Sequence record: PV292302.1 | Direction: 5' to 3' (one strand) | Source: Escherichia phage Jgk1 | DNA: 64,000 bases | Shown: piece after piece, positions 7,957 through 28,271 of the stretch | How the letters are laid out: each line of letters opens with the position of its first letter | Position numbering within the stretch: position 1 is the first letter of the stretch | Translations under genes and position numbers: made by a program | The notes under the pieces: generated by a model | Told to the model about the DNA's origin: nothing | Database searches by the model: none | What the model saw: only the letters and a program-made list of their open reading frames with translations

Positions 7957-8283
7957 ATGTTAAACCCTAATATTGTACACAGTAAGACAGGTGAACTTGT
8001 TCCTCTGGACTCTGTAGCTACCGTTGAAGATATTCTGGCTTGCCCAGCAAATATCGCAGCACTTTGTATGTGCATCGTGGAGCTAACTAAAGAGCGTAAG
8101 CTCTGGCTGGAACCAAGCAAAGAGATGGTTCAGGCTGGTTTGGCAGAAGTTCAATCCATGCTAGATAGTTGGGAAGATGATGGCACATTGTCTTATGGAG
8201 CCGCAGATGATATCTCCGATGTAAAAGCATCTGATATGGCTGTATTTGTATTACAAGCTATGGCTGGTAAACGTAATGGCTGA
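7957..8283 (+). CDS. hypothetical protein
   Basis: 108-aa ORF. Confidence 0.4.
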   Translation: MLNPNIVHSKTGELVPLDSVATVEDILACPANIAALCMCIVELTKERKLWLEPSKEMVQAGLAEVQSMLDSWEDDGTLSYGAADDISDVKASDMAVFVLQAMAGKRNG

Positions 8284-26279: not shown

Positions 26280-26289
26280 AGATTTCCAC

Positions 26290-26371
26290 GGGGGAGTAGT
26301 CAAGCGGTCGAAGACGGCAGACTGTAAATCTGTTATCCCACACGGTAGTTCGAATCTACCCTCCCCCACCA
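26290..26371 (+). tRNA. tRNA-Tyr (anticodon GTA), type II with long variable arm
   Basis: acceptor GGGGGAG/CTCCCCC, anticodon arm GCAGA-CTGTAAA-TCTGT, T-arm GGTAG-TTCGAAT-CTACC, encoded CCA. Confidence 0.7.
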
Positions 26372-26372
26372 C

Positions 26373-26447
26373 GGTAAGTTAGCTAAATGGTGAAGCGGCT
26401 GACTGTTAATCAGTGATAGAGTGGTTCGAGTCCACTACTTACCGCCA
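26373..26447 (+). tRNA. tRNA-Asn (anticodon GTT)
   Basis: acceptor GGTAAGT/ACTTACC, anticodon loop CTGTTAA, T-arm AGTGG-TTCGAGT-CCACT, encoded CCA. Confidence 0.7.
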
Positions 26448-26452
26448 TATTA

Positions 26453-26529
26453 CGGAGTTTAGCTCAGTCTGGTAGAGCATCTGCTTTGGGAGCAGAGGGT
26501 CGTAGGTTCGAGTCCTGCAATTCCGACCA
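26453..26529 (+). tRNA. tRNA-Pro (anticodon TGG)
   Basis: canonical D-arm GCTC-AGTCTGGTA-GAGC, anticodon arm TCTGC-TTTGGGA-GCAGA, T-arm GTAGG-TTCGAGT-CCTGC, encoded CCA. Confidence 0.75.
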
Positions 26530-26631
26530 AACAATGCGTCGTTAGCTCAAACAAGGAGAGAGCGTGGGTCCGGTAGCTCCGGGTTAAACCCAAGGTTGGG
26601 AGTGCAAGTCTCCTGCGGCGTACCAAACAAT

Positions 26632-26707
26632 TAGGGGTTAGTTCAGTTGGTAGAACATCGGACTTTGATTCCGAATGTCACAGGTTCGAATCCTGTACCC
26701 CTTGCCA
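26632..26707 (+). tRNA. tRNA-Gln (anticodon TTG)
   Basis: D-arm GTTC-AGTTGGTA-GAAC, anticodon arm TCGGA-CTTTGAT-TCCGA, T-arm ACAGG-TTCGAAT-CCTGT, discriminator G, CCA. Confidence 0.75.
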
Positions 26708-26709
26708 AT

Positions 26710-26785
26710 TGCTTCATAGCTCAGCAGGTAGAGCGTTCCCCTGATAAGGGAGAGGTCACTGGTTCGAACCCAGTTGAAGCAACCA
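26710..26785 (+). tRNA. tRNA-Ile (anticodon GAT)
   Basis: acceptor TGCTTCA/TGAAGCA, D-arm GCTC-AGCAGGTA-GAGC, anticodon loop CTGATAA, T-arm ACTGG-TTCGAAC-CCAGT, CCA. Confidence 0.75.
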
Positions 26786-27834
26786 ACATCCTATCAATGA
26801 GTACACTTGATTGAGGTCAGAAGATGAAATGAAGCTTCTGTAAAATGAATCCACAGAGTGTGCTCTTTGATAGTTTTCGTAAGCGATTATGCGGTTTTTT
26901 AGAAACGAACCAAAAACATAAATGCAAACGATGATGTTGTTCTGATGGCTGCTTAATTGCATAACCATTAGTCAGGAGTGAGTCGTCCTGATTATCAAAC
27001 GACCGTGGAGTTCTCCCGTCCATGTATTAGAAACGGGAGGCCAACTATGACCAGAGTAGCATGGGGCAAATGCACGGTTAGCTGCCGGGATGAGGGTTCG
27101 AATCCCCAGATGGTCAAAGTCCAGACGATATCTGAGTGACTTTAAAAACAGATGGAGCCAGGTGGAATCCCTGGCAATTAATACATACCATTGGCTTTAC
27201 AACACAAGTCCAACAGTTGGGCATAGGGCAGCAACCCTATAATCAGGTGAACGAGAACTTGTCTGGTAGTTGGTATGTAACCCCAACCGTTTCAGAAGAT
27301 GCAGGCAAGACCACGCAGCCCGTTGATAAACGTAGTGGCTGCTGGACAAGATGTAAAACGAGGCGTCGTTACACGCCTATCGTCACCATCTGAAAGGTAA
27401 ACGGTTTGCAACCGTACTAAATTCCAGGATATCAGCACTAGGTATAGCCATAATGTAATGCGCAACAGTTAAGGTAAGCCAACAAGTGTTTGGTTGATGT
27501 AGTCAGGGTTCATGGCCTGATTAGAAGGTTCGATTCCTTCTCCTGGAACCAATTCAAAGTAGCACTGTATCTTTAAATGTTTCCCGGCATTCAAAGCACA
27601 CACCGTGACAGTGCTACCCTGAATTGAAAGAATTATGGGGGCGAGGTCGTTAATACGACGGCGTAAGTACCAGATGAGACTTCTGGACGCCCCTACCACA
27701 TTCTGAACCAGTAAAGAAACATCCGAACTAACTATTAACTCTTAATGAGTGAAATAAGAAGTCCCCAAGGGGTTGGGTGAGATAACGCTATATCTGAGGA
27801 AGCAGGTAAGAATCCTGCATGGTTCACCAGTTAA

Positions 27835-27967
27835 GTCCGTTTAGCTCAGGGGTTAGAGCACGAGAGCCAAAGCATCGTTTCTACTTCGGTAGACAGCCTA
27901 GCTGGTCAAACGACAACGACTCGGTGTGAGGCCAGAGGTCATTGGTTCAAATCCAATAACGGACTCC
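27835..27967 (+). ncRNA. tRNA-like RNA with about 58-nt central insertion (no canonical anticodon arm)
   Basis: perfect 7-bp acceptor GTCCGTT/AACGGAC, canonical D-arm TAGCTCAGGGGTTAGAGCA, canonical T-arm ATTGG-TTCAAAT-CCAAT; the 80 nt between them include a UUCG-tetraloop hairpin and no 5-7-5 anticodon stem-loop. Confidence 0.3.
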
Positions 27968-28200
27968 CTATTAAGCAGTAACACAGTCCTGATTGCATAG
28001 CACTCTAAAGGCATCACTGGTAAGACAGTCCAGTGGCTGTTATATTGAAAACCATACCCCCGACAAGGTGTATGGAGTATGAGCAGACTATAATGCTCGC
28101 TAAGGAAACAGAGAAACGGACTATCAATCCATGTCTGCTTGACTCTTAAAGTGTTTCACTGATTTCCTGCCTAGCCTCGTTGACTGCGTTAAAGTCACTA

Positions 28201-28233
28201 AGTCCCCCTAGCACCACATAGGGGGACTTTTTT
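28201..28233 (+). terminator. rho-independent terminator closing the tRNA / structured-RNA region
   Basis: 9-bp stem AGTCCCCCT/AGGGGGACT followed by TTTTTT. Confidence 0.6.
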
Positions 28234-28271
28234 ATTTGAGTAACTACACTCGTTTCAGGAAAAAAAGAAAA

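Follow-up and report, generated by a model that had tools for sequence, protein, structure and literature searches.

A conserved tRNA-like RNA with an enlarged, internally paired anticodon arm in the tRNA operon of Escherichia phage Jgk1

The tRNA cluster of Escherichia phage Jgk1 (sequence record PV292302.1, of which a stretch of 64,000 nucleotides, the window, was analyzed) contains a 90-nt tRNA-like gene, here termed X, between the genes for tRNA-Pro and tRNA-Gln. X folds into a complete cloverleaf that ends in an encoded CCA, and its anticodon arm is enlarged by bases that pair with one another. Every base pair of this cloverleaf is kept in a diverged homologue. On balance, we lean toward reading X as a functional, non-decoding mimic derived from a tRNA.

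Results

Genomic setting of X

The source phage is an N4-like podophage (Schitoviridae, Enquatrovirinae). The top database match for its tRNA region is Shigella virus Moo19 (~96% identity), and partial matches are found in many Gamaleyavirus phages and Klebsiella N4-like phages. No credible ORF is present from 26280 to 28236, a segment that reads as one ~2-kb non-coding RNA operon closing at a terminator (Table 1). Early/middle genes lie on one side of this operon, and gp49-like, Tad2-like, and virion RNA polymerase genes lie on the other. The Tad2-like ORF (Thoeris anti-defence 2-like, PF11195; 29046–29555, + strand; E = 2.6e-23) adjoins an ORF resembling gp49/Sf6 gene 66 just downstream of the operon, 2.4 kb from X.

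ARAGORN and Rfam agree on a set of five tRNAs (Tyr, Asn, Pro, Gln, and Ile), all five of which have an encoded CCA. The genes are separated by spacers of 1, 5, and 2 nt, the exception being a 102-nt gap between tRNA-Pro and tRNA-Gln (26530–26631); the tight packing with one gap that a preliminary description of this DNA had reported is thus upheld by ARAGORN. The gap is composed of a 6-nt spacer, AACAAT, followed by the 90 nt of X (26536–26625) and a second AACAAT.

Table 1. Features of the non-coding operon and of X, in window coordinates
Feature	Position	Strand	Basis or remark
tRNA-Tyr	26290–26371		ARAGORN
tRNA-Asn	26373–26447		ARAGORN
tRNA-Pro(UGG), upstream neighbor of X	26453–26529	+	ARAGORN; Rfam 66.2 bits
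Direct repeat ACCAAACAAT, 10 nt, left copy	26526–26535	+	End of tRNA-Pro plus spacer
X, tRNA-like gene, 90 nt, G1 to encoded CCA	26536–26625	+	Rfam, folds, RNAalifold, covariance model
X acceptor stem, 5' strand GCGTCGT	26536–26542	+	Pairs with 26615–26621; 7 pairs kept in 3 distinct sequences
X D arm, 4-bp stem, 11-nt loop (GCTC-AAACAAGGAGA-GAGC)	26545–26563	+	Sequence; one compensatory change, C-G to U-A
X enlarged anticodon arm, 28 nt (usually 17)	26565–26592	+	3 compensatory changes in outer stem
X outer anticodon stem TGGGT/ACCCA	26565–26569 with 26588–26592	+	
X inner helix CCGG/CCGG, 4 bp	26570–26573 with 26579–26582	+	
X inner hairpin loop TAGCT, 5 nt	26574–26578	+	
X 3' bulge GTTAA, 5 nt	26583–26587	+	
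X variable loop AGGTT, 5 nt, class I length	26593–26597	+	Invariant in alignment; Rfam variable region
X T arm GGGAG-TGCAAGT-CTCCT	26598–26614 (stem 26598–26602 with 26610–26614)	+	One compensatory change, A-U to U-A
X acceptor 3' strand GCGGCGT, discriminator A, encoded CCA	26615–26625	+	CGTACCA invariant in homologues
Direct repeat ACCAAACAAT, right copy, identical to left	26622–26631	+	End of X plus spacer
tRNA-Gln(UUG), downstream neighbor of X	26632–26707	+	ARAGORN; Rfam 69.3 bits
tRNA-Ile	26710–26785		ARAGORN
Conserved backbone RNA blocks	27120–27185, 27551–27830, 27969–28236		16–24 of ~29 N4-like loci
Intrinsic terminator, strong, 11 bp	28200–28229		

Overall architecture of X

The acceptor stem of X comprises 7 bp (GCGTCGT/GCGGCGT), of which three are G-U pairs in the window and one is a G-U pair in the copy from Klebsiella phage vB_KoxiM_BaqKoxi (hereafter BaqKoxi). 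Two acceptor pairs change from U-G to U-A among the homologues, and the 3:70 pair is G-C in all copies. The dinucleotide TA links the 5' strand of the acceptor stem to the D arm, and a single G follows the D arm. The GG of the D loop reads TG in BaqKoxi, so G18 is not conserved. The T loop is non-canonical, with the sequence UGCAAGU and a G at the position usually occupied by U55; in BaqKoxi it reads TGCAACC.

The outer stem of the anticodon arm closes 18 nt rather than 7, arranged as CCGG-TAGCT-CCGG-GTTAA (CCGGUAGCUCCGGGUUAA). Folded in isolation, the arm adopts the same structure at −10.8 kcal/mol, and its 17-nt hairpin core, GTCCGGTAGCTCCGGGT, is invariant across all copies. Because the 11 extra bases pair one CCGG with a second CCGG, the would-be anticodon GGU is buried: in the predicted fold this GGU, part of a residual CCGGUAA loop, sits in the 4-bp helix under the 5-nt UAGCU loop.

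The D arm GCTC-AAACAAGGAGA-GAGC and the terminal GCGGCGT-A-CCA given in the preliminary description are present as described. Two of its observations hold in part. The T loop is indeed not of the TTCGA type, but a regular 5-bp T stem around TGCAAGT was overlooked; the acceptor called weak and wobble-rich does contain three G-U pairs in the window copy, but it forms seven pairs, with one G-U in BaqKoxi. The weak acceptor and missing T loop reflect the particular copy in the window and its unusual T-loop sequence, and do not indicate that the arms are absent.

The minimum free energy and centroid folds of X are the cloverleaf in three homologues, and the RNAalifold consensus, predicted independently, is the same cloverleaf with an added U(−1):A73 pair. 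X matches the Rfam tRNA family RF00005 at 33.6 bits (gathering threshold 29) if a 112-nt stretch is searched alone, the filters dropping the match in a 3-kb search; the neighboring tRNAs score 62–69 bits. This alignment spans 26536–26622 and model positions 1–71, with 17 nt inserted in the anticodon loop. Default ARAGORN makes no call on X. Folding z-scores of −0.7 to −1.8 are unremarkable, as is usual for tRNAs. The cloverleaf is beyond chance, given the minimum free energy fold, the RNAalifold consensus, the Rfam score, and a diverged homologue that keeps all pairs. The non-canonical, tRNA-like small RNA that had been considered for this slot is what is found: a full cloverleaf body with an encoded CCA that scores just above the Rfam threshold.

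Homologues of X and evidence for selection

A blastn search of 50,697 phage records returns a single homologue of X, in BaqKoxi, where it is unannotated. Pattern scans add two near-identical metagenomic copies of the BaqKoxi-lineage X (L007/L073 and L060). The covariance model R1 matches the X homologues at 128–130 bits. In a search of ~90 loci, including 29 N4-like loci fetched via the virion RNA polymerase, R1 finds the BaqKoxi lineage alone (L003, L007 = L073, and L060) and no further copies. Homologue scans of viral contigs, a metagenome, and genomes yield nothing beyond this lineage, one genome-scan hit (L061) not being upheld by R1. An origin of X in host DNA was rejected, as 5,426 E. 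coli genomes contain neither a match nor a look-alike. No description of X or of its non-coding operon was found in the literature searched.

The window and BaqKoxi copies of X are 79% identical, differing at 19 of 90 positions, an identity about equal to that between the tRNA-Gln genes of the two phages. Thirteen of the 19 differences affect paired sites, and all 25 pairs stay intact; when 13 substitutions are placed at random, a mean of 7.9 pairs break, and the probability that none does is ~5e-6. In five pairs both partners differ, with the outer anticodon stem accounting for three and the D and T stems for one each, and three G-U pairs become A-U. Only one in 500 column shuffles matches the observed pairing, and no slid register does. 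Because two diverged lineages exist, represented by three distinct sequences, the covariation rests on one deep split. With 13 paired-site substitutions and no broken pair, this comparison indicates that X is a structured RNA under purifying selection and neither spacer nor a decaying pseudogene. The 18-nt loop region carries one change in 18 nt versus 18 in 72 nt elsewhere, which is only suggestive of conservation of the inner hairpin beyond that of the rest of X.

These substitutions bear directly on whether X could be a dead tRNA gene that arose by slipped duplication in the anticodon loop, or a spacer carried along by recombination, an explanation that we regard as improbable. The CCGG...CCGG insert looks like a local quasi-duplication (TCCGGTA/TCCGGGT), X is absent from most relatives, and its score with the tRNA model is well below those of its neighbors (33.6 versus 62–69 bits). 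The insert is shared by both lineages and so predates their split, and the 13 paired-site substitutions that followed the split left zero pairs broken, and at 79% identity X is conserved as much as the functional tRNA-Gln of the same phages. Of the identities entertained previously, a pseudo-tRNA, if taken to mean a gene in decay, is disfavored by the compensatory substitutions, and a slot that is simply spacer is excluded by the selection on its structure.

Nature of the extra bases in the anticodon arm

X lacks the features of a normal decoder. Its 18-nt loop, eight bases of which are in the CCGG/CCGG helix, contains no U33, and this identity was rejected on the grounds that X has no 7-nt loop, no U33, a G at position 55, and a G18 that is not conserved. 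The T loop of a decoder is of the U54-U55-C56-R57-A58 type and its D loop carries G18 G19, patterns from which X departs. Under relaxed settings, ARAGORN reports X as tRNA-Thr(GGT) with a long variable arm, the form expected of the type II tRNA that the preliminary description had raised. The call is obtained, yet the fold behind it does not stand: across the homologues, the anticodon-stem cells that a type II fold requires are 53% paired, with breaks in BaqKoxi and L007, whereas those of the nested fold are 100% paired. A type II tRNA has an ordinary 17-nt anticodon arm and, after it, a paired variable arm of 11 nt or more; the extra bases of X lie inside the anticodon arm rather than in a variable arm.

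In silico removal of 11 nt leaves both lineages with the loop CCGGUAA and the anticodon GGU, a hint that X descends from a Thr-like tRNA. Comparison with 78 tRNAs from the fetched loci leaves the ancestry ambiguous, with Thr(UGU), Arg(UCU), Cys, and Pro tRNAs at 56–67% identity. A normal tRNA with a simple insert was rejected, since removal of 11 nt in eight registers gives zero default ARAGORN calls.

In X, the 4-bp helix is directly atop the anticodon stem, with a 3' bulge of 5 nt and a 5-nt loop on the 5' side. The splice motif of intron-containing pre-tRNAs is a 4-bp helix flanked by two 3-nt bulges, or by a bulge and a loop, at position 37/38 (PMC6379350), and the modeled arm of X superficially resembles the relaxed bulge-helix-loop form of this motif. 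In bacterial pre-tRNAs, only self-splicing group I introns are known, the protein endonuclease being archaeal and eukaryal (PMC6379350). No splicing endonuclease or RNA ligase Pfam family was detected in the 20 ORFs scanned among the window's 61 ORFs of at least 75 aa. To our knowledge, the hosts have no splicing endonuclease. A tRNA with a protein-spliced intron is disfavored by the wrong bulge length and by the lack of such an enzyme family in the ORFs scanned.

Taken as a decoding tRNA, X would be a tRNA-Thr(GGU) with an 11-nt intron near 37/38 or a type II tRNA, and we consider this quite improbable. It would account for the relaxed ARAGORN call, for a CCGGUAA loop in both lineages with the sole variable loop base in the removed part, for the likeness of the arm to the relaxed splice motif (PMC6379350), and for the presence of Thr(UGU) and Arg(UCU) among the best global-alignment tRNAs. 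It is opposed by an anticodon stem that is 53% paired in the type II fold and breaks in BaqKoxi, by the restriction of bacterial pre-tRNA introns to group I (PMC6379350) and the lack of an endonuclease or RNA ligase in the 20 ORFs scanned, and by a bulge of 5 nt rather than 3 with no 5' bulge. In addition, the "spliced" form has C33 and G55, and default ARAGORN still makes no call.

Other identities were likewise rejected. No Rfam match to YrlA or bacterial Y RNA is found on X at E up to 10. In YrlA, a permuted tRNA-like module is closed at the acceptor end, and the termini are in a long Ro-binding stem; unlike YrlA, X has its termini at the acceptor stem with CCA. Shuffled X forms duplexes with the remainder of the operon at least as good as the best formed by X itself.

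X as an exchangeable cassette

In the comparison with the tRNA clusters of related phages that had been suggested for this slot, the diverged BaqKoxi homologue keeps every pair, and X is absent from the Pro–Gln join of Moo19 and KP8. In these two phages and in the BaqKoxi-like contig L007, the join is 6–9 nt long. The window differs from all three by a clean 96-nt indel bounded by the 10-nt ACCAAACAAT repeats, a pattern that an insertion and a repeat-mediated deletion through recombination would explain equally well. The X of BaqKoxi-type phages is found 1.1 kb farther downstream, immediately ahead of a conserved RNA block.

This downstream slot has seven states in the fetched loci: empty (in the relative L071), tRNA-Ile(AAU), X, a 135-nt tRNA-like element termed Z (the state in the window), a pSb-1-type tRNA-like element with a 22-nt anticodon loop, an 85-nt mini element in KP8, and a 144-nt hairpin of the G7C type. 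The slots between backbone blocks hold interchangeable tRNA or tRNA-like cassettes. The backbone blocks, one of which contains a T-arm-like hairpin (GCCAGG-TGGAATC-CCTGGC, 27157–27175), match no Rfam family; they occur in 16–24 N4-like loci, and X and the elements Y, W, and Z in just 3–8. X is dispensable, because the slot can be empty (L071) and most N4-like phages are without X. From these distributions, X is best described as a rare, exchangeable accessory cassette.

Several other tRNA-like elements are visible in these operons. Z (27834–27968) has a tRNA-Ile-like body with the acceptor stem GTCCGTT/AACGGAC, normal D and T arms, and a CCC tail, and in place of an anticodon arm it carries a structured insert of ~80 nt, one part of which is a hairpin capped by UUCG. 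Among the homologues of Z, in L010/L064 (87% identity) and Pseudomonas phage Littlefix (74%), the acceptor and T stems have changed in a compensatory manner, and the UUCG tetraloop is swapped for GUAA. Matches to YrlA and other Rfam families around Z are far below threshold. The annotated "tRNA-Ile" of Moo19 is chimeric, an Ile 5' part being joined to the 3' part of a Z element. W (27422–27551) has the acceptor TTCCAGGA/TCCTGGAA, the T arm GAAGG-TTCGATT-CCTTC, an encoded CCA, and an insert of ~65 nt; its slot in KP8, BaqKoxi, and N4 holds a 67-nt mini version, annotated in KP8 as "tRNA-OTHER". Y (27048–27117) is a 70-nt cloverleaf-like element without CCA that is called as tRNA-Ala(AGC) only at a relaxed threshold, and its L068 homologue differs from it in the anticodon loop. 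A UAGCU hairpin loop as a functional motif of X, Y, and Z was rejected as not general in relatives, the loop being replaced by UUAACUA in the L068 homologue of Y and missing from the Littlefix homologue of Z.

The pSb-1-type contig L070 encodes, on its minus strand (8172–8272), a tRNA-like element that is canonical except for an anticodon loop of 22 nt, and KP8 encodes one with a shortened loop for which ARAGORN reports a 2-base anticodon (L002 1583–1657). These two genes suggest that "blinded" tRNAs recur in this phage group. Many Gamaleyaviruses (L062 1756–1834 and relatives; PhAPEC5-type) have a tRNA-Ile with the anticodon AAU and a CCC tail in place of CCA. For enterobacterial systems, neither a wobble-position A nor such a tail is usual.

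The main rival to a role in trans is that X is a purely cis-acting processing signal for RNase P and 3' trimming, the excised RNA being a by-product. X of the BaqKoxi type sits between two conserved backbone RNA blocks, and the same slot elsewhere is filled by tRNA-Ile or by tRNA-like elements with enlarged or replaced anticodon arms; a selected body with a free anticodon loop is what would be expected of an RNase P substrate. In the window, however, both neighbors of X are normal tRNAs, for which no additional cut is needed, and the slot can be empty (L071). RNase P recognizes minihelix substrates, for which an anticodon stem and hairpin are not required, and so it does not call for the outer anticodon stem, with its three compensatory changes, or for the invariant 17-nt hairpin. 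We therefore consider a purely cis-acting role unlikely.

A tmRNA-like tag module downstream of X

A tmRNA-like module (26792–27040) begins ~170 nt downstream of X. It comprises a long covarying helix (from 26792), a GNRA-capped hairpin, and a resume-like CAUAAAU|GCA sequence, and it scores 34.7 bits with the Rfam model tmRNA_permuted, below the threshold of 47. Its tag ORF (26924–26956, ~300 nt downstream of X) encodes ANDDVVLMAA*; it lacks a start codon, and an in-frame TAG precedes it by eight codons. Across 20 N4-like loci, the final Ala-Ala is encoded as GCT GCT, GCG GCG, or GCA GCC, and the tag varies as ANDNVVLMAA, ANDDVVLMVA, and ANEEAYLMVA. These synonymous Ala-Ala changes and conservative variants imply that the tag frame is translated. 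A tRNA-like domain with G3-U70 was not found for the module, and default ARAGORN calls no tmRNA, calls at lowered thresholds borrowing the neighboring tRNAs. The literature searched held nothing specific on an N4-like tmRNA or on N4-like tRNA-like RNAs. The module is missing from a 2014 list of phage ssrA genes (PMC4131195).

X was rejected as the tRNA-like domain of a tmRNA: it has G3-C70 rather than G3-U70 and a regular 4-bp D stem with covariation, and Rfam yields no tmRNA match on it. G3-U70 is the pair needed for alanine charging, and the D arm of tmRNA is degenerate, without a stem. A looser partnership, in which X supplies the missing tRNA-like part and delivers the tag module to stalled ribosomes or titrates SmpB, is very improbable. 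It draws on a conserved tag frame with synonymous variation and no recognizable tRNA-like domain, on the body of X, which with its CCA and no usable anticodon is like the tRNA-like domain of tmRNA, and on the precedent of mycobacteriophage DS6A, whose RNA is little more than a tRNA-like domain, such RNAs inhibiting tmRNA (PMC4131195). The G3-C70 pair and normal D stem of X speak against it, as do the absence of X from most phages with the tag module and the lack of conserved complementarity between X and the module. In its own right, a conserved tag frame without a recognizable tRNA-like domain may be a more important lead than X.

Discussion

Comparison of X with known tRNAs and tRNA-like RNAs

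X shares with canonical tRNA (RF00005) the 7-bp acceptor, 4-bp D, 5-bp anticodon, and 5-bp T stems, a 5-nt variable loop, a discriminator A, an encoded CCA, and a place in an operon with short spacers. The main differences are that the anticodon loop of X comprises 18 nt folded as a hairpin, without U33-NNN-R37, that its T loop is UGCAAGU, and that G18 is not conserved.

Several non-decoding RNAs can be set beside X. An engineered "tRNA scaffold", reportedly described by Ponchon and Dardel in 2007, has a payload in place of the anticodon arm. Similar to X, it is a tRNA body that carries a hairpin in its anticodon arm, and the scaffold is stable and processed correctly; it differs in being artificial, and the "payload" of X is just 11 nt. 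X is shorter than RNAC and RNAD of phage T4 and, unlike them, is a recognizable tRNA derivative. By description, X and these T4 RNAs share a location inside a phage tRNA cluster; RNAC and RNAD are small, stable, non-tRNA RNAs of the T4 tRNA region with unknown biological roles (PMC3014915). The tRNA-like domain of tmRNA and the DS6A RNA are, like X, phage-encoded tRNA shapes without anticodon function, and molecules of this kind can inhibit or titrate (PMC4131195). X differs in lacking G3-U70, in its regular D stem, and in drawing no Rfam tmRNA match. The eukaryotic mascRNA and menRNA are tRNA-like RNAs cut from MALAT1 and MEN-β by RNase P (PMC11693755). They resemble X as non-decoding cloverleaf mimics and, as would be expected of X, as RNase P substrates, and they differ in lying at the 3' end of a long non-coding RNA and in having a small anticodon loop. 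In the intron-containing pre-tRNAs of archaea and eukarya, as in the modeled arm of X, extra anticodon-loop bases pair as a 4-bp helix on the anticodon stem (PMC6379350); their bulge is 3 nt versus 5 nt in X, where a loop replaces the 5' bulge.

Proposed action of X

As a functional, non-decoding mimic, X would be co-transcribed with the tRNAs in the ~2-kb non-coding unit. By established tRNA biology, RNase P would cut X at U(−1)/G(+1), aided by the 12-bp acceptor/T stack and the ACCA sequence, and 3' trimming would halt at the encoded CCA to leave a stable RNA of ~90 nt. Compensatory substitutions have preserved the fold of X, the outer anticodon stem included, in two phage lineages, and selection probably acts on the tRNA shape and the invariant 17-nt hairpin rather than on decoding. 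More speculatively, the tRNA body could act in trans by engaging a tRNA-binding protein, such as a host tRNA-directed nuclease or other defense effector, a synthetase, or a maturation enzyme, and with its anticodon arm zipped X would take no part in translation and would escape cleavage at the anticodon. We favor this role of X as a trans-acting mimic, decoy, or binding platform, speculative as it is, because of the selection on the anticodon stem, the invariant hairpin, the patchy distribution and horizontal mobility of X, the nearby Tad2-like gene, and the precedent that phage tRNAs counter tRNA-degrading defenses (PMC11555353).

A broader and more doubtful proposal is that X, Z, W, the pSb-1-type element, and the "tRNA-OTHER" of KP8 form a set of "blinded" tRNAs that act as counter-defense decoys. 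Such RNAs would titrate host tRNA-directed nucleases or other tRNA-binding effectors, go unrecognized by the ribosome, and resist cutting in the anticodon loop. Cooperation of X with the adjoining tmRNA-like tag module is less likely than such a decoy set.

Standard annotation misses genes like X, which is unannotated in BaqKoxi and on which default ARAGORN is silent. An anticodon that is disabled in a tRNA shape that is nevertheless selected fits neither a codon-usage helper nor a counter-measure to tRNA-cleaving defenses. X may point instead to the use by these phages of the tRNA body itself, as a decoy, a binding platform, or a processing handle.
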